Shown here in pieces: positions 5,072 through 60,732 of a DNA stretch of 64,000 nucleotides (positions are counted from its first letter, which is position 1; the number at the start of each line of letters is the position of its first letter). This DNA comes from an uncultured Acidobacteriota bacterium (GTDB lineage Bacteria > Acidobacteriota > Terriglobia > Versatilivoradales > Versatilivoraceae): positions 4,539 through 68,538 of the forward strand of contig CAYWYX010000001.1 of assembly GCA_964462735.1 (NCBI GenBank). Direction: 5' to 3'. The position numbers and the translations under genes were made by a program. Under the pieces are notes generated by a model that worked only from the letters and a program-made list of their open reading frames with translations, made no database searches and was not told the DNA's origin.

Positions 5072-5866
5072 TTGAGTAATCAATTCAACCCTACTCTTGC
5101 ATACCTTTATCGACGCTGGTTAGTTCGCCAATTAATAAAAGAAATTCCAAAGGGAAGATTTTTAGAAGTTGGGATTGGAAGTGGTAATCTATATATAGAA
5201 CTTTTGGTTAGTGGATCTACAGGACTTTGCGTTGATTTCAACAGAACTTTAGTTGAGGCGCATCAGTGCCAAAAAACTGAATCAGATGAAGTTGAGTTCA
5301 AAGCTATGGATTTCTTTGACTTGAATGGGCTGTTTGATTTGGTGCTAGCTTTTGAGGTTCTGGAACATTATGAAGAAGACCTAAAATGTTTGGAGCGATT
5401 TTGGGAATTATTAAAACCAAACGGCTTACTATTAATTTCAGTCCCAGCTCATGGTCATCGTTGGACTTCTAATGACACTGCAGCTGGTCATGCAAGACGA
5501 TATGAGAAGGTTGAAATAATTAGGAAAATTGAATTATCTGGGTTTAAAGTTAAAAGTTGTTGGTGTTATGGATTTCCCGTTTTAAATTGGACCTATCCTC
5601 TTTCATCTGCACTATTTCCTAACAGGAAAAGGGGAACATTCCCCAAAGGATCTACTCAAGGGGTTAGTATTACTTCTCGAACCTTAATGAATTATGAGAA
5701 GACTTATCAAAGTGGCACCCGTATTTTCGTTAGATTTTCAAAATGGTTGTTAAAAGAGTGGCTTTGGTTACCTTTGTTACAAATGCAATGGCCAACATTA
5801 AATCGAGATATAGGAATTGGTTATATTATTAAATGTCAAAAAATTAATTCAAAGGATTACAGATAA
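5072..5866 (+). CDS. Class I SAM-dependent methyltransferase (second, paralogous to the first)
   Basis: FLEVGIGSGN...AFEVLEHYEED...LKPNGLLLISVP. TTG start with an AAAGGAG RBS 11 nt upstream. Confidence 0.7.
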   Translation: MSNQFNPTLAYLYRRWLVRQLIKEIPKGRFLEVGIGSGNLYIELLVSGSTGLCVDFNRTLVEAHQCQKTESDEVEFKAMDFFDLNGLFDLVLAFEVLEHYEEDLKCLERFWELLKPNGLLLISVPAHGHRWTSNDTAAGHARRYEKVEIIRKIELSGFKVKSCWCYGFPVLNWTYPLSSALFPNRKRGTFPKGSTQGVSITSRTLMNYEKTYQSGTRIFVRFSKWLLKEWLWLPLLQMQWPTLNRDIGIGYIIKCQKINSKDYR

Positions 5867-13564: not shown

Positions 13565-14167
13565 TTGAATACTTTCATCTATCTGGTCCGCCATGGGCAA
13601 TCATTTCATAATCTTCGTGGTCTCGTAGCTGGGCAATCACCTTCTTCCCTTACCCAGCAAGGCCAAGAAGATGCCAGAATTGTCGGTCAAAGTCTCAAAA
13701 AAATAAGGTTTGACCTAATTTATTCAAGTGATCTTTTAAGAGCTCAACAAACTGCAGAGACCATAAAAAATATACTATTTTTAAAGTGCCCATTACATGT
13801 TTCAGTTCTCCTTAGAGAACTTGATTTTGGTGAATATACTAATCGACCAGTCAGTGAAGCCTTTGCCTTTTTAAATTATAGAGAAATCCGTAATAAAAGG
13901 TATCCAGGAGGTGAGGGTTTTGAAGATTTGAAGCAGAGAATCTCTCTTTTTATTAAAAAATTGTCTAATGAATTTCTTGGATTGAATATTTTAGTAACCG
14001 CTCATGCAGGGTCGATCCGAATGCTGTTGGGTTTATTGGATCTATCTGGTCAAGATAAGTGGTTCAAGCAAGTAATCAGCAACCAATTTGTTGCCAAGGT
14101 GACTCTAGATAGAAATGGGGACTTTAATGAATGTTCAGTTTTCGAAAAGGGAGAAAATGTTTCTTAG
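13565..14167 (+). CDS. Histidine phosphatase family protein (phosphoglycerate mutase-like)
   Basis: Catalytic RHG motif (LVRHGQS) at the N-terminus. TTG start. Confidence 0.7.
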   Translation: MNTFIYLVRHGQSFHNLRGLVAGQSPSSLTQQGQEDARIVGQSLKKIRFDLIYSSDLLRAQQTAETIKNILFLKCPLHVSVLLRELDFGEYTNRPVSEAFAFLNYREIRNKRYPGGEGFEDLKQRISLFIKKLSNEFLGLNILVTAHAGSIRMLLGLLDLSGQDKWFKQVISNQFVAKVTLDRNGDFNECSVFEKGENVS

Positions 14168-16509
14168 AAAGATTTCCGGGATAAACTTTGAGTGGGGCTG
14201 AGCGGAGGCTGGTCAATTTGAACTAATTTATCAAATGAGAGTACGTCCATAGGACAAGTAGTAACACAAATCCCACATGCTATACAGGAACTATTCTGAT
14301 TATCTAAGACTTCTTGTTTAAGGGCAAAATTCATTACGTCAATTCCTACCTGACAATTTCGTGAGCACTCATCACAGCCGATGCATTTGTCATTAGCAAT
14401 GATCTTAAAACGGGCCCACTTCAACTTCGAGAAAAGTTGGGCTTGTAATTCCATAAGTTTTGCAAGTGGACACCAATATCGGCACCAGATTTTTCCCCCA
14501 AGGAATGGATATAGAGTTACTGGTAGTATTCCCACCAGCCAAACGTCAGCATAGATCCGATAAACCTGGATGCCGATATCTGCACCTTGGGAAAATAGAC
14601 CATATATGTCTTTGATTAGTACTAAGATGGTTACAAGTGTTGCAAAAATTAACACTGCTAAATTCATCCATTCCCACCGAACAGAATTTTTTCCTTTTGG
14701 GGCTAGATGCCGCCACCTGTCACCTAACGTTTCTGCCAGACCACCACAGCCACATATCCAAGAGCAATATCGTTTTCCTTGGAATAGAACAAAGATTGGA
14801 AGTATTATGAAAGTAAGAAATACCCCCCAAACCACCCAGATTTGATGGGGATCATAGAAGAAAGTATAGAAGAAAAGTGGCCAAGCATAAATAATCCCAT
14901 AACTTCTCCAAGCCTGTTCAGCGAAAGCAGGATCACTAGCAAGCCTTTCGCCCATCCATTGGTGATTTACAGCTGTTTGAAAAAGGTATTCAGGGATTAG
15001 GAAAAAAAAAGTCCACTGAAAACTTAATAGGCATATATAACGCCAAATCTGGTAGTTATCTTTATGGTCTATTCCCCAGCGTTTAAGGGCTTGCAGTCCG
15101 AAGATTGTCATTAAAGTGGTGAAAAGGACGGTATACCAGAAGGCCCAAGGTCGGTCAAAGAAAGATAGGAACTCATAGCCCCAATTTGTGTAAGGCCAAA
15201 GCTCTTCTCCTTTTCCTACCTTAACACCATAAATGGAGTACCAAACAAAAAATGAAATACCCAACCAAGAGAAACGGTCGCCCTTAATCCCATAACGAGT
15301 GAGCAAAGTGAGACTTATTAACCAGATAGAAACAGCCGTCCAGGTCGGAATGAATGATAAGTCTACTGGTAATGAAAAATCTCCTCCTTGTTTAACTCCA
15401 AATAACCAGGCCCCAAAAAATCCTAGAACAGTCAATCCTATAGATCTCAGAAGGTTACCTTCCCAATCGTTTTCCATTTTGAGGCCAAGGGATTTTAGAA
15501 AATCTCTTGGCACATCTGAGCCTACCAATACAAAAGCATGATCAAATGGAAGTTGCTGTTTTTCAATCAAATTATTTTTTTGTATTTCAAGAGTAGCTTG
15601 ATTTTTTTTAAACTCAGTAATCGAAGAACTGAGTACAGTCTTAACCTTATTTGTTTGAATTGAATCTTGCAATTTCCGCTTATTATCGTTAAAGACCCGC
15701 CTGAAATCAGTTCCTCGGTAAGAGAGAGTAACATTGTTGTTTTGGCTTAGGATAATGGCTGCTTCTACTGCAGAATTGCCACCTCCTATAACTAAAATAT
15801 TTTCGTTATGATATTTTCTTGGGGAATAAAGACGATGATATACATGTTCTTGGTCTTCACCAGAAACCTCTAGTTTTTTAGGATTACCTCGTTGTCCCGA
15901 TGCGAGCACTACATATTTAGCTAGATAGGTGCTTTTGGGAGTTGAAATATGAAAGATTCCATTTATTTTTTCACATCCAGTGACCGGTTCCTTAGTGTGT
16001 AGCTTTAGTTCATTCTCAGTTATGATTTGATGCCATCGCTGAACTAAGTGTTCTTTAGTTGAACCATCTAACCAAAGTTTTCCCTTAGGTGGTTGTTTGT
16101 CGGGTTCAGCATATACCCACTTACCTTCAGGGAAATTTTCAATCGTATTTGCAATAACCTCTTTTTCTAGTAAAAGATATTGCATGCCACTCTCACTAGC
16201 CTGAAGAGCAGCATTCAGTCCTGCAGCGCCACCCCCAATGACAAGAACATCTAACAATTTGGGATCCTGCTTATCAGATTTTTTTAGTAAAGAAGAGATA
16301 TGTTCAATTACCTGGAAACCTTGTTCCATGGCATGTTTGATGACAACTGCTCCAGCTAAGTCACCAATAATAAAAAATCCAGGGATGTTGCTTTCATTAT
16401 GATTTTTTAAATACGGACGTTCATTCGATCCACTACCGGAACCCAAGATAGAAATAATCTGAGTTTTAGCTTTACTTAAGAAACTTCCAGAAAATTGTTT
16501 TTTAATCAT
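14164..16509 (-). CDS. Fusion protein: FAD/NAD(P)-binding pyridine nucleotide-disulfide oxidoreductase-like domain + polytopic Trp-rich membrane domain + NapH/COG0348-type polyferredoxin with two 4Fe-4S motifs
   Basis: Two dinucleotide-binding motifs (VLVIGGGAAG and ILVIGGGNSAVE). Then more than 8 hydrophobic segments. Then CSWICGCGG and CRYWCPLAK (CxxxCP NapH-like), followed by CIGCDECSRNC and CIACGICVTTCP ferredoxin motifs. Confidence 0.65.
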   Translation of the reverse strand: MIKKQFSGSFLSKAKTQIISILGSGSGSNERPYLKNHNESNIPGFFIIGDLAGAVVIKHAMEQGFQVIEHISSLLKKSDKQDPKLLDVLVIGGGAAGLNAALQASESGMQYLLLEKEVIANTIENFPEGKWVYAEPDKQPPKGKLWLDGSTKEHLVQRWHQIITENELKLHTKEPVTGCEKINGIFHISTPKSTYLAKYVVLASGQRGNPKKLEVSGEDQEHVYHRLYSPRKYHNENILVIGGGNSAVEAAIILSQNNNVTLSYRGTDFRRVFNDNKRKLQDSIQTNKVKTVLSSSITEFKKNQATLEIQKNNLIEKQQLPFDHAFVLVGSDVPRDFLKSLGLKMENDWEGNLLRSIGLTVLGFFGAWLFGVKQGGDFSLPVDLSFIPTWTAVSIWLISLTLLTRYGIKGDRFSWLGISFFVWYSIYGVKVGKGEELWPYTNWGYEFLSFFDRPWAFWYTVLFTTLMTIFGLQALKRWGIDHKDNYQIWRYICLLSFQWTFFFLIPEYLFQTAVNHQWMGERLASDPAFAEQAWRSYGIIYAWPLFFYTFFYDPHQIWVVWGVFLTFIILPIFVLFQGKRYCSWICGCGGLAETLGDRWRHLAPKGKNSVRWEWMNLAVLIFATLVTILVLIKDIYGLFSQGADIGIQVYRIYADVWLVGILPVTLYPFLGGKIWCRYWCPLAKLMELQAQLFSKLKWARFKIIANDKCIGCDECSRNCQVGIDVMNFALKQEVLDNQNSSCIACGICVTTCPMDVLSFDKLVQIDQPPLSPTQSLSRKSF

Positions 16510-21396: not shown

Positions 21397-22209
21397 ATGA
21401 AAGGTGATAAATTTCCAAATTTAGTTAGACTTGTTGATCAACTGAGGGGTCCAGACGGGTGTCCTTGGGACCGTCAACAATCGTTTGATACTTTAAAACC
21501 AATGCTGTTAGAGGAAGCTTATGAAGTTCTTGAGGCTATGGATACCAATGACAATGAAGCTCTCTGTGATGAGCTAGGAGACTTACTTTTTCAAATTGTG
21601 TTTCTTTCTCAGATGGCTGAAACCGAAGGTATTTTTGATATTGAGGATGTCATCAGTGAGGTGCTTAATAAAATGATTCGTCGTCATCCTCATGTTTTTG
21701 GCAAAGATAAGGCCATAAATTCCGATCAGGTTCTTGAAAGCTGGGAAGCTATCAAACGAAAAGAGAAAATAAACAAGGTAAAAACTGGAAATTCAAAACT
21801 CCAAGTTGATTCAATTTTGGAACATTTGCCAGCTCTGCCTGCATTATTGATGGCTCACAAGCTTACCAGTAAGGTGTCAAGAGTAGGTTTTGACTGGAAT
21901 AAATTTGATGAAATCCTTTTAAAGTTGCAGGAGGAAATTAATGAGTTAAAGGAAGCCGTTGAGTGTTCTAGTGATTCTGAGCAACGTGTTAAGGTTGAAG
22001 AAGAAATTGGCGATTTATTTTTTGTAATGGTCAATATAGCAAGGTTTTTAAAAGTTGATCCAGAAACAGCCTTACGTAAGACAAATTATAAGTTTGTCCA
22101 GCGATTTCAGTTTGTTGAAGAGTCTTTGAGAAAAGCCGGTAAGAATTTCAAGGACAGCTCAATCAAAGAAATGGAACAGTTTTGGCAAGAAGCCAAGAGA
22201 GCTAAGTAA
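21397..22209 (+). CDS. mazG: Nucleoside triphosphate pyrophosphohydrolase MazG (tandem MazG domains)
   Basis: LRGPDGCPWDRQQS...EEAYEV..A...ELGDLLFQIV, and a second EIGDLFF repeat. Confidence 0.85.
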   Translation: MKGDKFPNLVRLVDQLRGPDGCPWDRQQSFDTLKPMLLEEAYEVLEAMDTNDNEALCDELGDLLFQIVFLSQMAETEGIFDIEDVISEVLNKMIRRHPHVFGKDKAINSDQVLESWEAIKRKEKINKVKTGNSKLQVDSILEHLPALPALLMAHKLTSKVSRVGFDWNKFDEILLKLQEEINELKEAVECSSDSEQRVKVEEEIGDLFFVMVNIARFLKVDPETALRKTNYKFVQRFQFVEESLRKAGKNFKDSSIKEMEQFWQEAKRAK

Positions 22210-22277
22210 AGGTGTTAACAGTTCCTGATTCTTTTAAATAAATTCCACCAAATTCAGGATAATTATTGGTGCTGAAT

Positions 22278-22300
22278 CTTGATTAAATCAAGTTTTTTTT
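22278..22300. terminator. Putative bidirectional intrinsic terminator between convergent mazG and the sulfur-carrier operon
   Basis: CTTGAT-taa-ATCAAG hairpin followed by T8. Confidence 0.4.
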
Positions 22301-22320
22301 ACCTGCTACTAATTATTCTC

Positions 22321-22596
22321 CTATCCTCCTGCAATGGCAGGAATTATAGATAGTTCGTCTTCATCACTAATGGATGTTTGTAAATTTTCTAGGAAACGAA
22401 TATCTTCTTCATTCACGAAGATATTGACAAAACGGCGGACTTTACCATCCGTTTCACAAATTCTATCTTTAAGACCAGGATAATTTTTGTCAAGGTCCTC
22501 AATAATTTCTAAAACGGACCGTCCAGTTCCGGTAACAACTTCTTCTCCATTGGTAAGAGTTCTTAATTGAACAGGAATACGGACTGAAATGGGCAT
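22321..22596 (-). CDS. MoaD/ThiS/CysO-family ubiquitin-like sulfur carrier protein (C-terminal Gly-Gly)
   Basis: 91 aa ending ...IIPAIAGG. It is the last gene of a SAM-riboswitch-controlled operon that also has an E1-like enzyme and a cysteine desulfurase. Confidence 0.65.
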   Translation of the reverse strand: MPISVRIPVQLRTLTNGEEVVTGTGRSVLEIIEDLDKNYPGLKDRICETDGKVRRFVNIFVNEEDIRFLENLQTSISDEDELSIIPAIAGG

Positions 22597-22667
22597 AAAC
22601 CCTCCTCTTTAATTTAAAAAATCTAAATCTAATGTTACTAAACTCTGGCGAACTCCTCAAATTTGTT

Positions 22668-23726
22668 CTAGCCTTTTTGCCGTGCTATCAACAATTTTTT
22701 CTTGTAAAGGAGTTCAGCATTTAAAACAGCAGCTCCAGCTGCCCCACGGATAGTATTGTGACAGAGTAATTCAAACTTATAGTCAAAAACAGAGCAAGGA
22801 CGAATTCGCCCCACAGCTACAGACATTCCACTTCCTAGATTTCGGTCCAATCTTGGTTGGGGTCTGTCCGGGGATTCAAGATAAATCACAGGTTTTCTAG
22901 GTGCACTAGGTAAATCCACAGACGGACAATTGGAAAGAACCTCAATCAGCTGGCTTTTAGATGGAGTTTGGTTGAATTTTACTGAGACAGCTTCCAAATG
23001 TCCGTCTTGTACATTAACTCGGTGGCACTGTGCACTAATCTTAAAATCTGAATAAATTATTTTTCCAGATTGGTATTTTCCTAAAATCTTGAGCGGTTCT
23101 TGCTCAACCTTTTCTTCTTCTCCTTCGATATAGGGCAAAACATTGTCTATCATGTCTAGACTGGGTACACCAGGATAACCAGCGCCAGACAATGCTTGCA
23201 TTGTGACAACACTAACCTCTTTCAGTCCAAATACTTTAGCAAGTGGAGCTAGGACTATAATTAGGGCGATAGTAGTACAGTTTGGATTTGTAATAACAAA
23301 ACCAGATCCAAATCCTCGTTTTTTTTGCTGAATGGGAATAAGTTCTAGGTGCTTGGGATTAACTTCAGGGACCAACAAAGGAACATCTTCAGCCATACGA
23401 TGGTTTTTAGAGTTGCTTACTACTGGGTAACCGGCCCTAGCAAAACTAAGCTCAGTTTGACCAGCGATTGATGAAGGTAATACAGAAAATATTAGATCGA
23501 CTCCAAATGGGGGTCGACAGTTTCTTAAGGGTAATTCTTGAATAAATTCAGGCATTGATTCCGAAACTCTCCAGTGACAGGCTTCCCTGTACTTTTGTCC
23601 AATAGAGTGATCAGATGCTCCAAGTTCTTTCACCTTAAACCACGGATGGTTCTCTAGTAACTGAATTAATCGTTGGCCTACTGTTCCAGTTGCTCCTAGG
23701 ATACCTACTTGCAACTTTTTATTCAT
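22668..23726 (-). CDS. asd: Aspartate-semialdehyde dehydrogenase
   Basis: N-terminal GILGATGTVGQ Rossmann motif. Conserved Asd blocks including the active-site Cys region (ITNPNCTT) and HRV. Confidence 0.85.
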   Translation of the reverse strand: MNKKLQVGILGATGTVGQRLIQLLENHPWFKVKELGASDHSIGQKYREACHWRVSESMPEFIQELPLRNCRPPFGVDLIFSVLPSSIAGQTELSFARAGYPVVSNSKNHRMAEDVPLLVPEVNPKHLELIPIQQKKRGFGSGFVITNPNCTTIALIIVLAPLAKVFGLKEVSVVTMQALSGAGYPGVPSLDMIDNVLPYIEGEEEKVEQEPLKILGKYQSGKIIYSDFKISAQCHRVNVQDGHLEAVSVKFNQTPSKSQLIEVLSNCPSVDLPSAPRKPVIYLESPDRPQPRLDRNLGSGMSVAVGRIRPCSVFDYKFELLCHNTIRGAAGAAVLNAELLYKKKLLIARQKG

Positions 23727-23814
23727 CAGGGCCTTTCTTTGAATCTTAGATCAACGGGTGGTATTCTTTCTTTTAACTTGTTCTTCCAACTAACACCTCA
23801 ATGATAGTCAATTT

Positions 23815-24948
23815 TTAAAGCTGATCTAAAGCTTCACAGCATTCATAGATATCTTCCATGGTATTAAAATAACCAGGACTAATCCTGATGAGGCCCTCAG
23901 GAGCTGTTTTCAAGGATCTATGAACATAAGGAGCACAATGAAGTCCGGATCGAACAGCGATCTGGAATGATTCGTCTAAAATAGCCCCGACTTCAGAGGA
24001 AGTATAATTTTTCCAGTTAACAGCTAGTGAACCAACACGCAGGTCAATATCAAGACTACCATAAAGTTGACATTGTTTTTTCTCGCGAAGCATTGTAATG
24101 AGTTGAGAAAGTAATTTCTGATCATGAGACCGAATTTTGTCAAATCCCTCTCTAATTACAAATTGCATACCTGCCCGTAGGCCTGCAATTCCTAATGTGT
24201 TAGGTGTGCCACTCTCCAATAGATATGGAAGTTCTTTGGGTTGTCGCGGATTTTCTGAGTTCGTCCCAGTTCCACCTTCTCTCCAGGGAGAGAGTGAAGC
24301 TCGGTCCCCGATTAGTAATAATCCAATACCCGTAGGTCCTAATAGTGATTTATGTCCGGGACAAGCTAGTAGGTCGATGTGTGAAGTTGACATATCTATG
24401 GGTATTATTCCTGCTGTCTGGGCTGCATCGACCAGAAAAATCAAGTTGTTTTCTCTACAAATTTTTCCTACTTCAGTTATTGGTTGAATAGTTCCTAGAA
24501 CGTTGGAAGCATGAAGAAGACTGATTAATCGAGTTCTAGATGTTATTGCTTTACGGAAGTCATTGGGATCAACAAACCCTTCAGTTGAAAAGGGAATCTG
24601 GGTAAGAGTAATTACTTGATTTTCCTCAAGTTGTTTTAAAGGTCGTGAAACTGAATTATGTTCAAGTAAACTGGTAATGACATGGTCTCCAGGTTGGACT
24701 ATACCCTTTATAGCAATGTTAAGTGAATCCGTTCCATTCAGAGTGAAGATCACTCTGTGATGATCAGACATTCCAAAAAAATGACCAGCTAGAAGTCGAG
24801 TATCCTCAATAGTTTTTTCTGTTTGGTATGCGAATTGATAATTACCTCTGCCAGGATTGGCTCCTTCCCTTTGCAGGTAACCATCAAGTTCTTTGTAAAC
24901 AGATTCTGGTTTTGGATAGCTAGTTGCTGCATTGTCTAAATAAAGCAT
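23815..24948 (-). CDS. Cysteine desulfurase / class V aminotransferase (group II, SufS/CsdA-like)
   Basis: PLP-Lys region (CPGHKSLLGPTGIG) and the persulfide Cys motif RSGLHCAPY. Confidence 0.75.
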   Translation of the reverse strand: MLYLDNAATSYPKPESVYKELDGYLQREGANPGRGNYQFAYQTEKTIEDTRLLAGHFFGMSDHHRVIFTLNGTDSLNIAIKGIVQPGDHVITSLLEHNSVSRPLKQLEENQVITLTQIPFSTEGFVDPNDFRKAITSRTRLISLLHASNVLGTIQPITEVGKICRENNLIFLVDAAQTAGIIPIDMSTSHIDLLACPGHKSLLGPTGIGLLLIGDRASLSPWREGGTGTNSENPRQPKELPYLLESGTPNTLGIAGLRAGMQFVIREGFDKIRSHDQKLLSQLITMLREKKQCQLYGSLDIDLRVGSLAVNWKNYTSSEVGAILDESFQIAVRSGLHCAPYVHRSLKTAPEGLIRISPGYFNTMEDIYECCEALDQL

Positions 24949-25031
24949 GTTAGAAGATAATTAATAGAGACAGTATTTTAATTGAAAAGCTAATCCTTGT
25001 TTTGTGGAAAATCTCTGCAAAGATTGCCCAG

Positions 25032-26075
25032 TTAATTTCCAATGTAACGGGAATACAGCGACCGAGCCAGTTGATGATTGCTAGTCCCTTTAACAATGCT
25101 TCGACCATCAAGAAAGACTATAATTTCTGCATCTTTACACTTGAATCGAAGGAGAAAACGATTAAAAGATACACTACCAAGAAGTTGTAGCCGACGACCT
25201 AGTTCTGGTAAATTTACTTTCTTTCCTTTAGGTTGAAATATTTGTACAGAATCTCGTCCACAAAGAGTTGTTGTTGAAGTTGAGTGATCACCCTTAAGAA
25301 ACTCTAACTTACCAGAATGACAAACAGGACAGTCATGGCTTTCGCTGCTACTAGCTATTTCTAACCACTGCCAGCTATTTTTCCAGATGTCCAAACACAA
25401 TAGTTTAGAGTTAAGTTGTTTTGTTTTTCCGGTTAGAATTTTAATTGCTTCAGTAACCTGTAAAGAACTGACTATACTTGCAATAGGTGAAAGAATTCCA
25501 GCCGTATCGCAAGTCGGGGTGCTGCCAGGTAAAGGGGGTGACTCCATAATACAACGAAAACAGGGTGTCTGCCTTGGAATAATTGTCATAGTAAGACCAC
25601 TACTGCCAACTGCTGCCCCATAGATCCAAGGGATCCTCTTTTTGTATGAAACGTCATTTAGTAGAAACCTAGTTTCAAAATTATCTGTACCATCAAGAAT
25701 ACAATCAATTCCTTCCATTAAAGATTCAGCATTTCGGTAGTTGAGATCTACAACGTGAGCTTCTATATTGACTAATGAGTTTATTTTATTCAGGTGTTGT
25801 TTCACAGCAATAGCTTTAGGTAGAGATTTTTCTGCATCTTCTTCATTAAAAAGAGTTTGTCTTTGCAAGTTGCTCTTTTCCACAAAGTCTCTGTCAATCA
25901 GTGTGAGATGCCCTATTCCTGCTCGACAGAGAGTTTCAGCTTGAACAGTTCCGAGGGCCCCGCATCCTACAATTGCTACTCGACTTTCAATTAGGTGCTG
26001 TTGACCTTGACTTCCTACTCCTGGAAATAATATTTGACGGGAATATCTTTCTAAGTTGTCTGACACCGATTTCAC
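25032..26075 (-). CDS. ThiF/MoeB-family E1-like adenylyltransferase with an extra C-terminal domain
   Basis: VAIVGCGALG Rossmann motif, RQ..F, zinc tetrad CFRC...CPVC. The ~90-aa C-terminal extension has no rhodanese Cys motif. Confidence 0.8.
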   Translation of the reverse strand: MKSVSDNLERYSRQILFPGVGSQGQQHLIESRVAIVGCGALGTVQAETLCRAGIGHLTLIDRDFVEKSNLQRQTLFNEEDAEKSLPKAIAVKQHLNKINSLVNIEAHVVDLNYRNAESLMEGIDCILDGTDNFETRFLLNDVSYKKRIPWIYGAAVGSSGLTMTIIPRQTPCFRCIMESPPLPGSTPTCDTAGILSPIASIVSSLQVTEAIKILTGKTKQLNSKLLCLDIWKNSWQWLEIASSSESHDCPVCHSGKLEFLKGDHSTSTTTLCGRDSVQIFQPKGKKVNLPELGRRLQLLGSVSFNRFLLRFKCKDAEIIVFLDGRSIVKGTSNHQLARSLYSRYIGN

Positions 26076-26145
26076 TATAAAAAAACTCCCTTAGGGAAGA
26101 GCAGAATAGGTAATTTAAAACTATAAATGGGATCTGTCATCAATT

Positions 26146-27387
26146 TTAAGCTACATTTTGAACAGTATTGACTGTTTTTTCAAACTCACTTAACTTAGCG
26201 TTAATGACTAAAGGTTTAGTAAGGTGATTTTCTATGGCTTCCTGTGTTTTTAGACCATTTCCGGTTATAGAAATTACGGTTAGATCGTTCTTTTTTATCC
26301 TACCCTGTTGGATAAGTTTTTGAGTTACAGCTACGGTAACGCCTCCAGCTGTCTCAGTAAAGATTCCTTCATCTTCGGCTAAAACTTTGATCCCAGTTAC
26401 AATTTCATCATCAGTAACATCTTCTCCCCACCCCTTAGTTTCTCGCATAGTCTGAATAGCATAGTAACCATCAGCTGGATTTCCAATGGAAATCGATTTT
26501 GCAATAGTTTGAGGTTTTACAGGTTTTATGAAATCTTGACTGGACTTAAGGGCCGTGGTAATTGGTGAACAGCCGGTGGCCTGTGCTCCGTAGATACGAC
26601 AATGATTATTGGAAATGAGACCAAGGCGTTCCATTTCTCCAAAGGCTTTACCTATTTTAGTAATCAAAGATCCACCAGCCATGGGAACCACAATACAATC
26701 AGGGGCACGCCATTTAAGTTGTTCTGCAATTTCGAAACCGTGACTCTTAGACCCTTCTGCATAAAAAGGACGAAGATTAATATTTACGAATCCCCAGTGA
26801 TGTCTCCCAGCGATTTCACTGCAGAGTCTATTAACGTCATCATAATTACCATTAATTCCGATAACTTCTGTTTTATAAATTAAACTACCTATTACTTTTC
26901 CCGTTTCAAGATCAGATGGAATGAAGACATAGCTTTTTAGGCCTACACTGGCTGAATTTGCAGCTACAGAATTAGCCAGATTTCCAGTAGAAGCACAGCC
27001 TACTGTTTTAAATCCAAATTCGAGAGCTTTGGAAAGTGCAACTGACACTACCCGATCCTTAAAAGAGAGAGTAGGGTAACATACGCTATCATTTTTTATG
27101 AAGAGCTCCTCTAAACCAAGACGTTTAGCTAAATTATCTGCCTTGATTAAGGGAGTAAACCCCACATCTAAGCCTACCTGAGGGGCTTTATCCAATGGAA
27201 GAAGCTCTGAATATCGCCACATGTTTGGTTTTCTCTTTTCAAGTACGCCCCTATCTACTACTTTTTTAATAGCTTGATAGTCGTAAATCACCTCTAATGG
27301 ACCAAAACAAAACTCACAAACCGACAGAGGTTCTTTAGGGTAGGTCTTTCCACATTCTTTACATTGTAGTCCAGTTACAAACTGCAT
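26146..27387 (-). CDS. Threonine-synthase-like PLP enzyme (ThrC fold); context suggests an O-phosphohomoserine-dependent homocysteine synthase (MetM-like) rather than a canonical ThrC
   Basis: PLP-Lys motif PTLSFKDR. N-terminal Cys4 ribbon CKECG...CEFC. First gene behind the SAM-I riboswitch and co-operonic with the sulfur carrier, E1 and cysteine desulfurase. Confidence 0.8.
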   Translation of the reverse strand: MQFVTGLQCKECGKTYPKEPLSVCEFCFGPLEVIYDYQAIKKVVDRGVLEKRKPNMWRYSELLPLDKAPQVGLDVGFTPLIKADNLAKRLGLEELFIKNDSVCYPTLSFKDRVVSVALSKALEFGFKTVGCASTGNLANSVAANSASVGLKSYVFIPSDLETGKVIGSLIYKTEVIGINGNYDDVNRLCSEIAGRHHWGFVNINLRPFYAEGSKSHGFEIAEQLKWRAPDCIVVPMAGGSLITKIGKAFGEMERLGLISNNHCRIYGAQATGCSPITTALKSSQDFIKPVKPQTIAKSISIGNPADGYYAIQTMRETKGWGEDVTDDEIVTGIKVLAEDEGIFTETAGGVTVAVTQKLIQQGRIKKNDLTVISITGNGLKTQEAIENHLTKPLVINAKLSEFEKTVNTVQNVA

Positions 27388-27430
27388 ATTCTCCTCACGT
27401 TAGAAAGAATCAAGATGATGTTTAAAAGAC

Positions 27431-27464
27431 AAAAAAAAACCTCTTCGACAAGATGAGAAGAGGT
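27431..27464 (-). terminator. Riboswitch expression-platform intrinsic terminator
   Basis: Minus-strand RNA ACCUCUUC-ucaucuugucg-GAAGAGG followed by U9. Sits 44 nt upstream of the thrC-like start, which has a GAGGAG RBS. Confidence 0.75.
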
Positions 27465-27587
27465 ATATATCTACATTCCCATTCTTATCTTTCAGAAACC
27501 TTGTTCTGTCGGAGTTGGCACCTTCCCTCAATAGGAGGTTGCCGTGGCTTCTAAGGGCCAGTCCCTCAGCCACTCTGGATAAGAACG
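27431..27587 (-). promoter_or_regulatory. SAM-I (S-box) riboswitch, aptamer plus terminator
   Basis: Minus-strand RNA CUCUUAUCCAGAGUGGCUGAGGGACUGGCCCUUAGAAGCCACGGCAACC...AAGGUGCCAACUCCGACAGAAC...CUGAAAGAUAAGA matches the S-box consensus almost base for base. Confidence 0.85.
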
Positions 27588-27607
27588 TTATTTAATTGTA
27601 AAAAGTG

Positions 27608-27635
27608 ATTATATTCACAACACCGGAAATGTCAA
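27608..27635 (-). promoter_or_regulatory. Near-consensus sigma70 promoter driving the riboswitch/operon
   Basis: Minus strand TTGACA-16 nt-TATAAT. The predicted TSS is about 10 nt upstream of the aptamer 5' end. Confidence 0.6.
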
Positions 27636-27897
27636 GAGACAATTCACAAGGATACAAAATCAGAAAAACATTTGGATTTATTGGATTCATAGAGTATAGA
27701 GAAGAATAGTTGGTTTATTGGGTCAACGAGGTATAGGGTTTCAGTTTAACCTCTAAGGTCAAGAAAAGACTAAAATTAGAAATTTGATATAAACAATAGA
27801 TTCAACAAGTCTAAATCATCTAAATATGAAAGTACAATCGGCGAAATTAGGCTTCAAAAAGATTCTTTTGAAATTATATTTGTTTGATTTATTGCAA

Positions 27898-28860
27898 TTA
27901 ATGATTTAATAAACGTCCTATCACACGCCTTAAAAACTCTTCTTTATTAATCGCAATCCCAACTTTAGCATTTGACAACGGATTCTCCTTAATGATTGTT
28001 AATCCTTCGTTGGTAACATGAATTTGAGCAGGCTGGGTGACAAAGAGTTCCGGCCATAATACCATGCCTATTGGGACTACATCATAGAGTATCGGTGTCT
28101 CTTTTCCCCATAATTGATAGAGAGAACGTAATGAGTTTGTCAATGGTGAATTAACTTCCCAAAGGTCTTGTCGTGCTTCTTTTTTTAATTTTAGAGATGC
28201 TGTAATATCAAGACCTGCATAGGTTATAGGTAATAAAGAGTTTGTCAGCCTGATAGCAGATGGAATGTCAGCCCGAACATTCCATTCTACTGAAGGAGTC
28301 GGTTTGTCGTCATATCCTCTATAAAACGAGCCCAACATAGAATAAATTCCTTTTGCTAGGGTTAAAACTTCGGGATCTTTTTGAAGGACCTCTGCTACAT
28401 TTGAGACTGGGCCTGTTGTAATCAGAATTACCTGTTTTGGGTAAAGCCGTAGTTGGTTAGCTATAAATGTTGCTGCTGGAGTTTCAATTGGCTTTATTTT
28501 TGAAAAATCCTTTGCCCATGAAAACTGCCTAAAAGTTGGTTCGTTGAATGTCAGATTACCCACAATTGAGGCTGTTTTTCTTCCTACTCCCACGGGGATA
28601 TGATCCATCTCGGTTTCATAGAGAAACCGACAGGCTAGTTTTGATCTTTCTTTAGTTTGTCCGTGACCCACTGTAATGCCTAGGATTTCGAGTTCTGGGC
28701 TGTTTAATAGTAAAGCAAGTGCAAAAGCGTCATCAATGTCACTGCCGAGGTCAGAATCTAGAATAATTTTTTGGCCTTTAGCAAGAATATTGTTCTGAGC
28801 AGTCATCACTAGAAGGAAAATAAAGATTTTTCCAATGACATGAAAAAATTTAAGTTCCAT
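27898..28860 (-). CDS. Secreted nucleoside hydrolase (inosine-uridine preferring family)
   Basis: N-terminal signal peptide. IU-NH aspartate cluster DSDLGSDIDDAFAL. Confidence 0.75.
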   Translation of the reverse strand: MELKFFHVIGKIFIFLLVMTAQNNILAKGQKIILDSDLGSDIDDAFALALLLNSPELEILGITVGHGQTKERSKLACRFLYETEMDHIPVGVGRKTASIVGNLTFNEPTFRQFSWAKDFSKIKPIETPAATFIANQLRLYPKQVILITTGPVSNVAEVLQKDPEVLTLAKGIYSMLGSFYRGYDDKPTPSVEWNVRADIPSAIRLTNSLLPITYAGLDITASLKLKKEARQDLWEVNSPLTNSLRSLYQLWGKETPILYDVVPIGMVLWPELFVTQPAQIHVTNEGLTIIKENPLSNAKVGIAINKEEFLRRVIGRLLNH

Positions 28861-28908
28861 TGTTTATTTGTTTGCCTTAAAAGAAAAGCTGGTCTACTCC
28901 ATAATTTT

Positions 28909-30699
28909 TCAATGAAAAGGCCAGATTATGGGTATTAATAAAGTAGTGATTACCCAGTTTAGAAGACTGAGAACCAAACCTGCCCTGAGATAATCTTTAA
29001 ATCGGTAACCTCCCGGACCATATACCATCGTATTCGTCTGATATCCGATGGGGGTCAGGAAGCTACAGGATGCAGCAAAGGCTATACAAAAGGCGAAAGG
29101 GCGTGGATCCCAGGTACCTTGACTTGCAATTGAGATAGCAATAGGTGTTAAAAGAGTAGCGGTGGCATTATTAGAGATAAATGCACTTAGGGTCATTGTA
29201 ATGAGATATAGCCCGCCAAGTACGGCAGAAGGTCCAAAGGGCTTAAGCCACTGAAGAATACTGTCAGCAATTAAAATAGCTGTTCCTGTTTCTTCCATTG
29301 CTTTCCCCAGAGAAAGAGTGGCACCAATGAGAATTATAATTCTCCAATCTACTGCTTGATAGGCTTCTTGTGGGGTAAGACATCTAGTCAACACCATTAA
29401 GAGAGCTCCTGACATAGCTGCAACCATAAGAGGGTGAGGAAGAGGTAGAAGATTAGTGGTGGCCACAAAGATTACTCCTACAAAGATACAAATTGAAATA
29501 GGTGTTTTACTCAGTTTAAAATTATGTTTGTCCGCTTTGTCTATAACGATCAAAAAATCTTGATTTTGCCTTAAGTTATTAAGGATGTTCTTCCGTACCA
29601 ACATCAGCAATAAATCCCCTGCACGTAAACGTACTCTACCTAGTTTTTCTAGAATAGGGCCTCCGTGACGCCTAATTGCCAAGGTAGTGGCTTGGAATCG
29701 TTGTTGAAAATTGAGTTCCTCTAGGGTTTTGCCTGCTAGACTGGATTCACTTGAAACAACAGCCTCTGCTAAGAGAACATCGTCTGATTGAAGATCAGCA
29801 TCACCGAGCTTAACTTCAGGTAAGATACCCACTCCTTCAGAATCGCGAAGTTTTAAAATGTTTGGTAAACCACCTTTAACAATAAGAATGTCATTTACTT
29901 TGAGATGAATTTCGTCTAGTAGTATTTGGAATTTGTCTTCTCCCCTTCTAATTTCAAGGACTTCAATGTCGAGGGTATCATTAAAATTTGTCTCTTTAAG
30001 AGTTTTGTTTATTAACTGAGAATTCTTTTGAATTACTAATTCAGTTAGATAATCTCTTAATAAATACGAGTCAGTCAAACTAGTCTTGTCAGGTCTACTA
30101 GGAAGAGAGTACTGCCCGATAGTGAGCATGTACAAGCCACCCACTACTAACAACAATGCCCCCAAACTGGTGAACTCAAACATATGAAAGGTTTCTGAAG
30201 TATGACTAGTAAAAATTGATCCCACAATGATGTTTGTAGAGCTACCTATATAAGTACAAACTCCACCCATAATTGCTGCATAGGACAAAGGAATAAGTAG
30301 CTTAGAGGATCGTAGTTTCTTCTCTCTAGCAATACCAAGTATCATAGGTAGGAAAATAGCCACTGCTGCTGTATTACTGATGAAAGCAGAGAAAATTGCA
30401 ATCATAGGGATGATTATAGATAGGAGTCGTCCTTCAGATGACCCTCCAACTTTGGAAAGACTATTTCCTAGTTTAAATACAACCCCTGTTCTGATTAGTC
30501 CATGTCCCAGAATGAGCATCGCTGCAACTGTAATTGGAGCTGGATTACTAAAACCACCTAGAGCTTCCGTTGGACTCAATACCTGCGTCACTATTAAGAG
30601 GCCCACAGCTGAGAGAGCTGTAATTTCGATTGGGATGATCTCAGTAAAGAAGAGAACAAGCGTTATCAATAAAACTGCACAAACTATTAGAACTTCCAC
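28909..30699 (-). CDS. SLC13/DASS-family anion permease with two central TrkA-C regulatory domains
   Basis: Polytopic, 596 aa. Duplicated transporter halves flank two TrkA_C-like soluble domains (…ILIVKGG…, …LLLMLVRK…). Confidence 0.8.
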   Translation of the reverse strand: MEVLIVCAVLLITLVLFFTEIIPIEITALSAVGLLIVTQVLSPTEALGGFSNPAPITVAAMLILGHGLIRTGVVFKLGNSLSKVGGSSEGRLLSIIIPMIAIFSAFISNTAAVAIFLPMILGIAREKKLRSSKLLIPLSYAAIMGGVCTYIGSSTNIIVGSIFTSHTSETFHMFEFTSLGALLLVVGGLYMLTIGQYSLPSRPDKTSLTDSYLLRDYLTELVIQKNSQLINKTLKETNFNDTLDIEVLEIRRGEDKFQILLDEIHLKVNDILIVKGGLPNILKLRDSEGVGILPEVKLGDADLQSDDVLLAEAVVSSESSLAGKTLEELNFQQRFQATTLAIRRHGGPILEKLGRVRLRAGDLLLMLVRKNILNNLRQNQDFLIVIDKADKHNFKLSKTPISICIFVGVIFVATTNLLPLPHPLMVAAMSGALLMVLTRCLTPQEAYQAVDWRIIILIGATLSLGKAMEETGTAILIADSILQWLKPFGPSAVLGGLYLITMTLSAFISNNATATLLTPIAISIASQGTWDPRPFAFCIAFAASCSFLTPIGYQTNTMVYGPGGYRFKDYLRAGLVLSLLNWVITTLLIPIIWPFH

Positions 30700-47045: not shown

Positions 47046-47498
47046 ATGTTGCAACTAAGGGGTAGCTTGACAGTTAAGCTCGATGAAAAAGGTCGAATTA
47101 AGCTGCCATCAGGTTTTCGTTCAGAAATTAGTCAGCAACATGGAAATGAATTCTATATTACCAGTCTTACAGGGGAATGTGTTCGACTTTATCCTTTCGC
47201 AGTATGGGATGAGCTTGAGAAAAAAATATCCGCTCTTCCTTCAAAAAAACCGGTAGTTAAGAAGTTTCTTAGAGCAACTAATTATTTCGGTCAAAAGAGT
47301 TCAATGGATAGTCAGGGACGCATCCTTATTCCCCAACAGCTCAGAGAATCTGCAGTCCTCAAAGACGATGTTAGGGTTGTTGGTTCAATGGATTATTTAG
47401 AGATCTGGCAAGCCCAGACCCTTAAGCAGGCAGTCGAGAACAACCCTTGGAATGAGGATGATGACTCGGCATTAGCTGATATTGGAATTACGGGATAA
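47046..47498 (+). CDS. mraZ: Transcriptional regulator MraZ
   Basis: Tandem SpoVT/AbrB-like halves (LDEKGRIKLP ... DSQGRILIP). First gene of the dcw cluster. Confidence 0.9.
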   Translation: MLQLRGSLTVKLDEKGRIKLPSGFRSEISQQHGNEFYITSLTGECVRLYPFAVWDELEKKISALPSKKPVVKKFLRATNYFGQKSSMDSQGRILIPQQLRESAVLKDDVRVVGSMDYLEIWQAQTLKQAVENNPWNEDDDSALADIGITG

Positions 47499-47536
47499 TT
47501 CTGACCCGCTCTTTAAACGGTTTTATTCTCCTCTAA

Positions 47537-48499
47537 ATGACTTTGATCAGTCAAGAAAAAGGAAGCGCTAAAGTTACAGATAGTATTCACCAGTCCGTGT
47601 TGGTAGAGCAAGTTATGGAATATCTTCAACCCCAAAAGTTAGGTTCTTATATTGATGCAACCGTAGGATTAGGGGGCCATGCCAAGACCATATTAGATCA
47701 ATCTAGCCCAACTGGGAAGATACTAGCAATTGACCAAGATCAGGAGGCTTTAAAACAGAGTGTTCAAAGACTTTCAGGGTATGAAAAACGGATGATCTTT
47801 CATCACGGTAATTTTTCGGAACTAAAAACCATAGCAACTCTTAATGGTTTTGAATCCTGTGACGGTATTTTGGCGGATCTTGGAGTTTCATCTATGCAAT
47901 TATCCGAAGCTTCACGAGGCTTTAGCTTTCAAAATGAGGGTCCACTTGATATGAGGATGGATTGCAGTTCCAGATTAAAGGCAAACGAAGTAGTAAATTA
48001 TTATACAGAAAATGAATTGGCCTCACTCATTTATAAATATGGAGAAGAAACTCATTCTCGCCGAATAGCTAGAGAAATAGTAAAAGCTCGTCCACTGAAT
48101 AGCACCAAAGGTTTAGCTAATACAGTGGTAAGGGCAATTCAAGGAAAAAAGAGAGGGAGAATTCATCCAGCCACTCAAACTTTTCAAGCAATTAGGATCA
48201 TTGTTAACGATGAATTAAATGTCTTGAAGAAATTTCTTAAGAATGCGGTCGAACTTTTAAAACCAGGTGGCAGACTGGCAGTTATTAGTTTTCACTCGTT
48301 AGAGGATCGTATTGTAAAAACTACATTTAAGACTATGGCGGGTCATTGTACTTGTCCTCCTAAGTTACCAGAGTGCCTCTGCGGTCAGGTGAAAATAGTT
48401 AAGTTATTAACCCGAAAGCCAGTTATCGCAAAGGACATCGAAAAGAATAAAAATCCTAGATCCAGAAGTGCCAAATTGAGGGTTGCTGAGAGGTTATAG
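47537..48499 (+). CDS. rsmH: 16S rRNA (cytosine1402-N4)-methyltransferase RsmH (MraW)
   Basis: H.SVL..E....L......YIDATVGLGGH, DLGVSS, and SFHSLEDR. Confidence 0.9.
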   Translation: MTLISQEKGSAKVTDSIHQSVLVEQVMEYLQPQKLGSYIDATVGLGGHAKTILDQSSPTGKILAIDQDQEALKQSVQRLSGYEKRMIFHHGNFSELKTIATLNGFESCDGILADLGVSSMQLSEASRGFSFQNEGPLDMRMDCSSRLKANEVVNYYTENELASLIYKYGEETHSRRIAREIVKARPLNSTKGLANTVVRAIQGKKRGRIHPATQTFQAIRIIVNDELNVLKKFLKNAVELLKPGGRLAVISFHSLEDRIVKTTFKTMAGHCTCPPKLPECLCGQVKIVKLLTRKPVIAKDIEKNKNPRSRSAKLRVAERL

Positions 48500-48522
48500 T
48501 TAGCTGTCTTAGCAATAGTTAA

Positions 48523-48978
48523 TTGACTTTATTAACTCGAGGAGAAAACGTCATGACTGAAATTCATATTGTCAAGCATATTGACAATTCACGACTGGTC
48601 AAGGAACTAGATTACCAGCAGACAAAAGAATGTCTTTTGCTAATGGTCTTGGGGGTATTGTGTTTGTTGACCCTCCTTTTCCTAGCATGGCAACAGTTCG
48701 AGGTTGTTCGTCGAGGTTATGAACACGAGGATTTACGTATGGAATTAAATCTTCTAACAGAGGCTAACCATATCTACAAAGTAGAATGTGCACAGTTAAA
48801 AGAACCAGAACGAATTGAAATTTATGCTCGGAAGCACTTGGGCCTACAATTTCCTTCTTATCAACAAGTTCTGATTTTTGAAGAACCGGTTTCTACTAAG
48901 TCTCGTGAAGTTCTCTTGGCCAGCGGAGAAAAGGATGGATTTGATTCGGGTCTAACCAATTTTGGAGCAGTCCAATAA
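48523..48978 (+). CDS. ftsL: Cell division protein FtsL-like (bitopic, coiled coil)
   Basis: Position between rsmH and ftsI. Single TM (LLLMVLGVLCLLTLLFLAW) followed by a helical region. The true start may be the internal Met. Confidence 0.6.
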   Translation: MTLLTRGENVMTEIHIVKHIDNSRLVKELDYQQTKECLLLMVLGVLCLLTLLFLAWQQFEVVRRGYEHEDLRMELNLLTEANHIYKVECAQLKEPERIEIYARKHLGLQFPSYQQVLIFEEPVSTKSREVLLASGEKDGFDSGLTNFGAVQ

Positions 48979-49101
48979 AGGGGTTTCATTCTATTACAAA
49001 TTTCTTAAGGTTTTAAGTTGAGATTTAGTTGGAGTTTAAAGTACGCAGTCATTGCTTTAGAAGTCTACAGATGCATTCTCTAAACCTGATACGGGTGGCT
49101 T

Positions 49102-51186: not shown

Positions 51187-51232
51187 ACAGCAGACTTAAA
51201 AAATATATTCATAAAGAATCCACGGGTAGATT

Positions 51233-54104: not shown

Positions 54105-54215
54105 AAGCAGTCAATTTATAGACTTATTGCTAATTAGCTTGTAGTTTTTGTTTTTAACTTCCACTGTATGAATTAGATGAAATTTTTTTGAACAGTAGAA
54201 ATTGATCTTAAGCCA

Positions 54216-55355: not shown

Positions 55356-55428
55356 GAAGCTATAGAATAAAGTGTATAGAAGTGAAACTTTACCCTTCTA
55401 AAGCTTTCCTGAAACCCTGGAGTAAATT

Positions 55429-56787: not shown

Positions 56788-56852
56788 TGATTCGTAAATA
56801 TACCATTAATATTTTAATTTCCATCATTTGAAAGAAATGACTAGTTAATTAT

Positions 56853-57944: not shown

Positions 57945-58015
57945 GCTAATGCTTCTAAGGTGAGTTAGTCTCGATCCATAAATCAATTTTCTGGACTAAT
58001 TGTTTTAGGTAGAAC

Positions 58016-60650: not shown

Positions 60651-60732
60651 AGAGTAATCTCATAGAAATTAAACAGAGTAGCTAATAATGAGATGATGAA
60701 AAACCATTAACTAGCAAAACAGGGTAAGAATA

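Follow-up and report, generated by a model that had tools for sequence, protein, structure and literature searches.

What is a gene annotated as a threonine synthase doing behind a riboswitch for S-adenosylmethionine (SAM)? The question is raised by a 64,000-nucleotide stretch of DNA (from here on, the window) from an uncultured Acidobacteriota bacterium, contig CAYWYX010000001.1 of assembly GCA_964462735.1. On its minus strand lies a single transcription unit of five open reading frames (ORFs), 27635-22321; the first ORF encodes a ThrC-like enzyme dependent on pyridoxal phosphate (PLP) and the last a small sulfur carrier. We consider it very probable that this operon is a methionine-regulon unit making homocysteine from O-phosphohomoserine via a protein thiocarboxylate, the route known as MetM/MetO. 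The evidence comprises the riboswitch and its expression platform, the non-canonical character of the enzyme, its association with the carrier, one gene row in a Nitrospirae genome, a link through Nonomuraea, the CysO-like nature of the carrier, the intact motifs of the E1 and desulfurase, and the conserved gene order. The window is AT-rich (37.5% G+C), and close homologues of its proteins are named from metagenome-assembled genomes of Acidobacteriia/Terriglobia.

In order of transcription, the operon encodes the ThrC-like PLP enzyme (26146-27387, 413 residues), with C9xxC12...C24xxC27 near its N-terminus and PTLSFKDR at residues 105-112, including the PLP lysine K110. It is followed by a ThiF/MoeB-type E1 adenylyltransferase (25032-26075, 347 residues) with the pairs C172xxC175 and C249xxC252; a SufS-type (class V) cysteine desulfurase of the TIGR01977 family (23815-24948, 377 residues) with the motif SGLHCAPY, the predicted sulfur donor; an archaeal-type aspartate-semialdehyde dehydrogenase, Asd (22668-23726, 352 residues); and a CysO/MetO-like carrier of the ThiS/MoaD fold (22321-22596, 91 residues), whose C-terminus, AIAGG, leaves a free Gly-Gly. 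The carrier gene is thus the last of the operon and does not stand next to the ThrC-like gene. The gaps between the genes measure 70, 83, 88 and 71 nt in gene order, and a search of them for internal promoters or conserved elements returned nothing conserved beyond ribosome-binding sites. A weak 5-bp hairpin followed by T7 in the gap between the ThrC-like and E1 genes (26099-26086, minus strand) is not conserved in the related loci L001 and L005 and is probably not functional. An earlier note on this DNA had described five co-directional minus-strand genes with gaps of 70-90 nt, behind one consensus promoter, a SAM-I aptamer and a terminator; all of this holds, as do the protein families that it named and the motifs by which it recognised them (PTLSFKDR, CxxC...CxxC, SGLHCAPY and the terminal Gly-Gly).

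The leader carries a sigma-70-type promoter (27608-27635, minus strand) with -35 TTGACA at 27635-27630, a 16-nt spacer and -10 TATAAT at 27613-27608. These hexamers match the consensus at 12 of 12 positions, the sole perfect match within 22100-27950. Next comes a SAM-I (S-box) aptamer at 27482-27585 on the same strand, which matches Rfam RF00162 over the full model (positions 1-108) with 98.3 bits against a gathering score of 44.4 (E = 1.5e-22). An intrinsic terminator follows at 27431-27464, minus strand, in which an 8-bp GC-rich stem (ACCUCUUC/GAAGAGGU, 27464-27439) encloses a 10-nt loop and leads into a U-run that extends to 27431. It was missed by a consensus terminator scan because the loop is 10 nt long. 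A predicted antiterminator helix (27447-27489, minus strand) pairs the 3' strand of P1 (GAUAAGA.UGGGAA) with UUCUCAUCUUGUC, a segment that spans part of the terminator 5' arm together with the terminator loop. Minimum-free-energy folding of 27500-27425 in ViennaRNA gives the antiterminator (-16.9 kcal/mol) and no terminator when the P1 strand is free, and the terminator (-12.1 kcal/mol) when that strand is blocked. These models predict a transcriptional OFF switch that alternates between antiterminator and terminator in response to SAM.

The comparison with L001 and L005, whose ThrC-like enzymes are 76-78% identical to that of the window, shows that the aptamer is kept, as are both hexamers of the promoter and, from the terminator, its 3' arm with the T-run; the promoter flanks are not. 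The four internal spacers cannot be aligned among the three loci beyond the ribosome-binding sites. As the leader elements are conserved while the spacers have diverged beyond alignment, we conclude that selection acts on the leader and not on the spacers. The same gene is preceded by an orthologous SAM-I aptamer in L001, L004, L005 and L006, and also in L087 and L088.

Is the first gene a threonine synthase at all? Its product scores 212 bits with the Pfam family PALP and 283.8 bits with the thrC model TIGR00260 (cutoff 167.1). That model does not separate the paralogues, for the MetM-like protein of the Nitrospirae locus L016 passes it too, with 289.5 bits. Public records call the window enzyme 'threonine synthase' because it passes a model that lumps both paralogues, and the same misannotation of MetM-type enzymes is pointed out in GapMind 2026. 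Five ThrCs of solved structure (PDB 1UIM, 2D1F, 2ZSJ, 6CGQ and 1E5X; as a set, from Aquifex, B. subtilis, T. thermophilus, M. tuberculosis and Arabidopsis) align with it only from about residue 57 on, at 29-37% identity. The first ~55 residues hold the four-cysteine ribbon, which is kept in the family down to ~40% identity.

To separate the paralogues, the window protein and 83 carrier-linked homologues were aligned against eight canonical ThrCs, namely the five solved proteins and three canonical paralogues. The window enzyme is 55-78% identical to the 83 homologues and 29-37% identical to the eight canonical proteins; for instance, it shares 34% identity with the canonical ThrC of L016. The two groups are set apart by systematic differences at about 24 positions, many of them within conserved active-site motifs of ThrC; the discriminating positions sit in the substrate, phosphate and PLP-phosphate loops as well as elsewhere. 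The window enzyme has the residue of the carrier-linked clade at 24 of 24, and the canonical ThrCs at none. Where all solved ThrCs have KDRGM, STGNTS, NS.NP.R.EGQK, GNAGN and TAI.IG.P.SW, the window enzyme departs from each motif and carries the alternative residue throughout the discriminating positions. Thus, KDR-VV replaces KDR-GM, STGN-LA replaces STGN-TS, N.R..Y...S (N204, R206, Y209 and S213) replaces S.N..R...Q, and A.GSL replaces G.AGN (A237, G239, S240 and L241 in place of G, A, G and N); likewise, K297-S298 stands for T-A and D306-G307 for S-W. By these sequence comparisons, the window enzyme is a paralogue apart from the proven threonine synthases, and we predict that it is a homocysteine synthase dependent on a carrier thiocarboxylate.

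The N-terminal ribbon, which the same note had offered as a marker of MetM, does not serve this purpose. The 'thrC' of Haloarcula marismortui plasmid pNG700 (L089:3995-5254) has a ribbon-like segment with three of the four cysteines and neither signature; of the 24 discriminating positions, just five have the clade residue and five the canonical one, and no carrier gene adjoins it. Similar genes occur on many haloarchaeal megaplasmids, so that the fold may include a third functional class.

A scan for relatives, with one genome retained per species, yielded 80 loci (L007-L086) that span Desulfobacterota, Nitrospirota, Nitrospinota, Planctomycetota, Verrucomicrobiota, Cyanobacteria, Chloroflexota, Aquificota, Acidobacteriota and others. 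A CysO-like carrier gene lies near the paralogue in 75 of them, within 1.5 kb downstream in 70. According to a covariance model derived from four aptamers that Rfam confirms, at least 38 of the 80 have a SAM-I in the same orientation directly ahead of the paralogue gene or of the operon that contains it. Eight loci that were negative by this model, cyanobacteria included, were checked against Rfam and contain no SAM-I, which agrees with the published lack of a riboswitch in Microcystis (PMC12172450).

In Nitrospirae bacterium MYbin3 (L016:6986-12384), a row of six co-directional genes encodes a MetM-like enzyme, a carrier with the C-terminus AIAGG-SC, a 78-residue NIL protein, a canonical ThrC of 363 residues, a homoserine kinase of family TIGR02535 (567 bits, cutoff 446) and an aspartate kinase. 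Because a canonical ThrC is present in the same row, the paralogue is not the threonine synthase of this cell. Both of the enzymes that use O-phosphohomoserine adjoin the kinase that makes it; one member of TIGR02535 has been validated experimentally as HomK (GapMind 2026). The same order of MetM-like enzyme, carrier, NIL protein and ThrC recurs in L009 and L021.

A further link comes from the actinomycetes. In Nonomuraea gerenzanensis, a SAM-I riboswitch precedes a metM-like gene for a Zn-ribbon ThrC-like enzyme, followed after a 24-nt gap by a 91-residue carrier ending in AVAGG. Between the window and Nonomuraea, the enzymes are 50% identical (E = 4e-137) and the carriers 49% (E = 6e-34), and the Nonomuraea enzyme has 23 of the 24 signature residues. 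Actinoplanes has the riboswitch and the enzyme gene with no carrier adjacent; a 91-residue ORF near its enzyme gene was checked as a carrier and ruled out. A homology search seeded with an actinomycete homologue returned Micromonosporaceae only. The layout in Nonomuraea (SAM-I, enzyme, carrier) is that of Streptomyces albulus, where metM and metO form a homocysteine synthase system under a SAM riboswitch, as related in PMC12172450 and bioRxiv 10.1101/2024.10.14.618325, the two sources through which we cite the original report (Hasebe et al. 2024, Appl Environ Microbiol 90:e01247-24). Like the window, S. albulus combines a ThrC-homologous PLP enzyme with a small carrier ending in Gly-Gly, has its SAM riboswitch upstream of the enzyme gene, and shares the usual misannotation as threonine synthase; its substrate is O-phosphohomoserine, and the same substrate is probable for the window enzyme. 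The MetM/MetO-type reading advanced in the earlier note is thus supported by every comparative test that was run, whether on signature residues, carrier adjacency, riboswitches, L016 or Nonomuraea.

The other proteins of the operon fit such a system. The carrier matches Pfam ThiS with 61 bits, and its best relatives in PDB are two CysO proteins, 4n6e_B (E = 6.5e-22) and 3dwg_C, M. tuberculosis CysO in complex with CysM (E = 5e-21), both aligned over the full length. CysO is the thiocarboxylate donor to a PLP-dependent O-phosphoserine sulfhydrylase (PMC12910592). As the window carrier already ends in Gly-Gly, it needs no C-terminal maturation. The desulfurase belongs to Aminotran_5 and exceeds the TIGR01977 cutoff (442.1 bits against 377); its alignment with solved SufS-type enzymes spans the full length and shows that the lysine motif GHK and the catalytic cysteine of SG(L/H)HCA are retained. 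Its assignment as SclA was ruled out (326.5 bits against 525). The fourth product is firmly an Asd (NF006416, 472 bits against a cutoff of 232; TIGR00978, 426.2 bits against 301.2), with both domains.

The E1 is the less usual member. It scores 255 bits with Pfam ThiF, keeps the nucleotide-binding residues and both CxxC zinc pairs, and has a cysteine, C189, aligned with the Cys of the ThiF segment NCRTAG, presumably ThiF C184, which forms an acyl-disulfide with ThiS. To judge from these motifs, the E1 and desulfurase both look catalytically competent. E. coli ThiF and MoeB in PDB align to residues 8-254 of the E1 only, and residues 255-347 match no solved sequence. NCBIfam PRK12475 covers this region too, aligning with residues 9-346 of 347 at 396.7 bits, below its cutoff of 510. 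The unexplained C-terminal domain of ~90 residues without a rhodanese motif that the earlier note had remarked on is real, and its predicted fold (residues ~255-347) is like that of the TATA-binding protein (TBP) and has no rhodanese. The AlphaFold2 predicted local distance difference test score is 86 for the full-length protein and 76 for this domain alone. Within the domain, L271-C272-G273-R274 is invariant, and the motif is kept in long E1s of Acidobacteriota, Planctomycetota and one unclassified bacterium. MoeZ, by comparison, is a rhodanese-fused E1, in keeping with its NCBIfam name, 'adenylyltransferase/sulfurtransferase MoeZ'.

The gene order ThrC-like enzyme, E1, desulfurase, Asd, carrier is kept in the acidobacterial loci L001-L006 and recurs, minus the desulfurase, in the more remote relative L091. 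The E1, desulfurase and Asd, which the earlier note had regarded as additions to the known pair, are therefore genuine and conserved members of the operon in related Acidobacteria, and Asd inside the cluster is specific to this lineage (L001-L006 and L091). The extension by E1 and desulfurase is present here and is not confined to this lineage, since both also stand alongside the paralogue in Planctomycetota and one unclassified bacterium. Across the 80 loci, partner genes partition cleanly. A long E1 occurs in five, four of them with a TIGR01977-type desulfurase, and none of the five has a JAB, TusA, CysM-like or NIL gene nearby. A short ThiF of ~270 residues occurs in 22, in the company of JAB, CysM-like, TusA/sulfite-reductase-like and NIL genes. 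The remaining 53 have the enzyme with or without the carrier only, to which NIL or other partners are added in some cases. Of these types, that with long E1 and desulfurase is the one found in the window operon. In the Planctomycetota loci L039, L052, L056 and L033, the clusters of MetM-like enzyme, carrier, long E1 and desulfurase are broken by unrelated small ORFs, some of them resembling the Uma2-family endonuclease fold, and a search of these clusters for extra conserved partners gave only such insertions.

How, then, might the operon work? The elements, families, conservation and co-occurrence are observed, and from these sequence data we infer every catalytic step. At low SAM, the antiterminator would form and the five genes would be transcribed from the single strong promoter; with SAM bound, P1 would be locked, the terminator would form and transcription would halt ahead of the first gene. 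The E1 would adenylate the C-terminal Gly-Gly of the carrier, the SufS-type desulfurase would draw sulfur from cysteine as a persulfide, and this sulfur would turn the acyl-adenylate of the carrier into a thiocarboxylate. The relay might pass through a cysteine of the E1, either C189 or C272 of the TBP-like domain, the latter standing in for the rhodanese of MoeZ. The ThrC paralogue would eliminate phosphate from O-phosphohomoserine as threonine synthase does, and the carrier thiocarboxylate would then be added at C-gamma, instead of water at C-beta, to give homocysteine. Under demand for methionine, the co-transcribed Asd would boost the flow from aspartate semialdehyde through homoserine to O-phosphohomoserine. 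The path that sulfur takes across the E1 and the way in which homocysteine leaves the carrier are likewise steps that we infer.

As to the relay itself, we put forward tentatively, and as rather doubtful, that the long E1 is a new fusion of E1 and sulfurtransferase, in which Cys272 would take the persulfide from the TIGR01977 desulfurase and pass it to the carrier acyl-adenylate, thereby replacing the rhodanese of MoeZ, Uba4 and MOCS3 in a module free of JAMM. If this is true, the long E1 and desulfurase would form a self-contained alternative to the module of short ThiF, JAB and TusA/sulfite reductase that serves the same enzyme in other phyla, and the lack of JAMM in the module would imply that homocysteine leaves the carrier in a different way.

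Several points weigh against assigning the operon to homocysteine synthesis. In the CysO/CysM and HcyS/MetY precedents, a JAMM-type hydrolase frees the amino acid from the carrier adduct; neither the operon nor the 64-kb window holds a hydrolase of the JAMM/Mec type, and this is the chief unexplained point. A search of the window for JAB/JAMM, NIL, TusA, sulfite-reductase and CysM-like genes, or for a second thrC or a second asd, found none of them. Were the asd of the operon the only one in the genome, its repression by SAM would starve the synthesis of lysine, diaminopimelate and threonine. The E1 does not appear to be intrinsically specific to the pathway, as it falls below the PRK12475 cutoff (397 bits against 510) and the same type stands alone in L090. 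Orthology to the characterised MetM of S. albulus would run only through an actinomycete intermediary, Nonomuraea. Finally, a Microcystis member of the clade, with a metO-like gene adjacent and 51.6% identity to S. albulus MetM, made threonine from O-phosphohomoserine and deaminated threonine in vitro, and it did not raise methionine in vivo (PMC12172450).

This last result keeps alive, at low probability, the idea that the ThrC-like enzyme is bifunctional, making threonine without the charged carrier and homocysteine with it, so that the operon would partition O-phosphohomoserine and would not be dedicated to methionine. Besides the threonine synthase and threonine deaminase activities of the Microcystis protein (PMC12172450), the conserved PLP lysine and the retention of R206 near the position of the canonical NPxR Arg speak for it. 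We nevertheless hold it to be unlikely, as there is no regulatory logic in SAM-OFF control of an enzyme that forms threonine, a canonical ThrC shares the gene row with the clade member in L009, L016 and L021, and the ~24 residues, many of them in ThrC active-site motifs, are consistently unlike those of all proven threonine synthases. The enzyme is very unlikely to be an ordinary threonine synthase that merely shares its locus with an E1, desulfurase and carrier serving molybdopterin, thiamine or tRNA thiolation. The TIGR00260 score (284 bits over a cutoff of 167) and the public name favour this view, as do the resemblance of the E1 family to MoeB/ThiF and the occurrence of the same E1 type alone in L090. 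All five genes, however, are under one promoter and SAM riboswitch; no moaE, moaA, thiG or thiH lies near the operon; the carrier groups with CysO, not with MoaD or ThiS; the paralogue is paired with such a carrier in 75 of 80 genomes; and the active-site signature is non-canonical.

The remaining alternatives keep the thiocarboxylate chemistry and change its substrate or its product. Homocysteine could be made from a different carbon substrate, for example an acyl-homoserine or an intermediate closer to aspartate semialdehyde. This would account for the Asd, which is conserved in the acidobacterial operon; homoserine dehydrogenase and homoserine kinase are absent from the operon and window. 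Methanogens make homocysteine from aspartate semialdehyde with a NIL-domain partner, and NIL proteins accompany the clade in 33 of the 80 loci. The window operon has no NIL gene, however; the threonine-synthase fold with its PLP-binding core is retained, the L016 enzyme gene adjoins the TIGR02535 homoserine kinase, and the published MetM family, in the sources cited above, uses O-phosphohomoserine, all of which makes a different substrate quite unlikely. The system might also build some other sulfur compound, such as cysteine, a thio-cofactor or a natural product, with the riboswitch reflecting a SAM-dependent step downstream. The nearest solved homologues of the carrier are indeed CysO proteins, which serve cysteine and 2-thiosugar synthesis, and many related clusters include a CysM-like gene. 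The window operon has no CysM-like enzyme, its sole candidate for a PLP sulfhydrylase has the ThrC fold, and the module is spread over many phyla as a core-metabolism gene pair beside genes for threonine and methionine precursors; we regard a product of this other kind as most improbable.

With the homocysteine synthase prediction thus preferred, the operon can be set beside the systems already described. Charging of the S. albulus carrier falls to MoeZ and its maturation to the hydrolase Mec; GapMind 2026 lists these as steps apart from MetM and MetO. The window pair is ~50% identical to the Nonomuraea pair that shares the S. albulus layout. It differs from S. albulus in having its own E1, with a TBP-like domain and no rhodanese, a dedicated SufS-type desulfurase and Asd, in the lack of a JAMM gene nearby, and in the position of the carrier gene, last and not beside the enzyme gene. 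The CysM/CysO/MoeZ/Mec system of M. tuberculosis (PDB 3DWG; PMC12910592) likewise joins a phosphorylated hydroxy-amino acid to a carrier thiocarboxylate on a fold-type II PLP enzyme, and the window carrier matches CysO over its full length (E = 5e-21). The window operon nevertheless lacks Mec and a rhodanese-E1, has a SAM riboswitch, uses an enzyme of the ThrC branch rather than CysK/CysM, and would act on a substrate one carbon longer; moreover, no CysM-like ORF that could partner a CysO was found in the 64-kb window, so that the operon does not belong with CysM/CysO.

In comparison with canonical threonine synthase, the window enzyme has the same fold and SFKDR PLP-lysine motif, and probably shares both the substrate and the beta,gamma-elimination chemistry; it differs by its ~55 extra N-terminal residues with the four-cysteine ribbon and by the ~24 systematic substitutions. 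Krishnamoorthy and Begley are said to have described in 2011 yet another system, HcyS/HcyF/HcyD/MetY of Wolinella succinogenes, in which homocysteine comes from a carrier thiocarboxylate charged by a ThiF-like E1. Its substrate is reportedly O-acetylhomoserine and its enzyme MetY, of fold type I; it also requires the JAMM protease HcyD and obtains its sulfur by reducing sulfite. The window operon has none of these distinguishing genes. Clusters of the L004 type, which belong to the same enzyme clade, do hold JAB, ThiF and sulfite-reductase-like genes, together with a CysM-like gene.

What is new is therefore limited. The pathway, its substrate and the control of metM by a SAM riboswitch are already known (Hasebe et al. 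2024; GapMind 2026), and the advance is incremental because this core has been published. There is less novelty than the earlier note had implied, since SAM-riboswitch control of metM is in print (PMC12172450, citing Hasebe 2024) and the extension by E1 and desulfurase is shared with Planctomycetota and one unclassified bacterium. A literature search found no description of the acidobacterial five-gene operon, of the pairing of long E1 and desulfurase, of the TBP-like domain or of Asd in a SAM regulon in such a context. New here are the sulfur-supply module, in which a long E1, with its TBP-like domain and invariant LCGR cysteine, and a dedicated desulfurase replace MoeZ and Mec, and the inclusion of Asd in the regulon.

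For many bacteria, metabolic reconstructions from genomes were known to have a gap at homocysteine synthesis (PMC5764234). The MetM/MetO route closes it in part, yet is annotated 'threonine synthase' almost everywhere. It is widespread, occurring in Acidobacteriota, Planctomycetota, Verrucomicrobiota, Nitrospirota, Desulfobacterota, Cyanobacteria, Aquificota and Actinomycetota. The ~24 residues can be used in annotation pipelines to split MetM-type enzymes from true threonine synthases. The pathway has at least two alternative sulfur-charging modules, and the non-rhodanese C-terminal domain of the long E1, with its conserved cysteine, leads to a concrete and testable hypothesis of sulfur relay. 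Soil Acidobacteria, in addition, appear to put the supply of aspartate semialdehyde under SAM control.

In eight loci of the clade, carrier and NIL domain occur in a single ORF (...IIPAIAGG-linker-NIL), namely L007:8158-8787, L008:8279-8800, L011:8599-9147, L013:3008-3532, L017:6324-6848, L019:8279-8791, L025:6331-6903 and L026:3206-3853. The presence of a JAB/JAMM gene near all eight suggests that the carrier may be released proteolytically from the fusion. In ~25 further loci, NIL is encoded by a small gene of its own after that of the carrier. Among the 80 loci, 28 carriers have one to six residues past the Gly-Gly, and just five of those loci have a JAB within 7 kb; given so few, we suppose that the hydrolase for processing or release is mostly encoded at another site, or else dispensable. 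In L077, an acidobacterial locus without SAM-I, a weak SAM-II match (RF00521, 37.5 bits, cutoff 36) at 5737-5810, ~1.2 kb upstream of the MetM-like gene, indicates that this gene may be under a different class of SAM riboswitch.

Downstream of the operon lies the convergent mazG gene, which is terminated by the hairpin CTTGATTAAATCAAG with T8 at 22278-22300 on the plus strand. Read on the minus strand, this hairpin has A8 before it and no U-run after it. It was the only good hairpin with a T-run that a search for an intrinsic terminator after the carrier gene returned, and since it is oriented for mazG, the riboswitch operon has no obvious intrinsic terminator of its own. Upstream, on the same strand and outside the riboswitch unit, are genes for a nucleoside hydrolase and a CitMHS/TrkA-C transporter (27898-30699); these are syntenic with L001-L003, as is mazG on the other side. 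Elsewhere in the window, a 781-residue ORF (14164-16509, minus strand) joins a pyridine-nucleotide-disulfide oxidoreductase module to C-terminal 4Fe-4S ferredoxin domains. The plus strand carries a complete dcw cluster (47046-62904) of ordinary housekeeping character, with mraZ, mraW, an ftsL-like gene, a gene for a penicillin-binding protein, murE, murF, mraY, murD, ftsW, murG, murC, ftsQ and ftsA.

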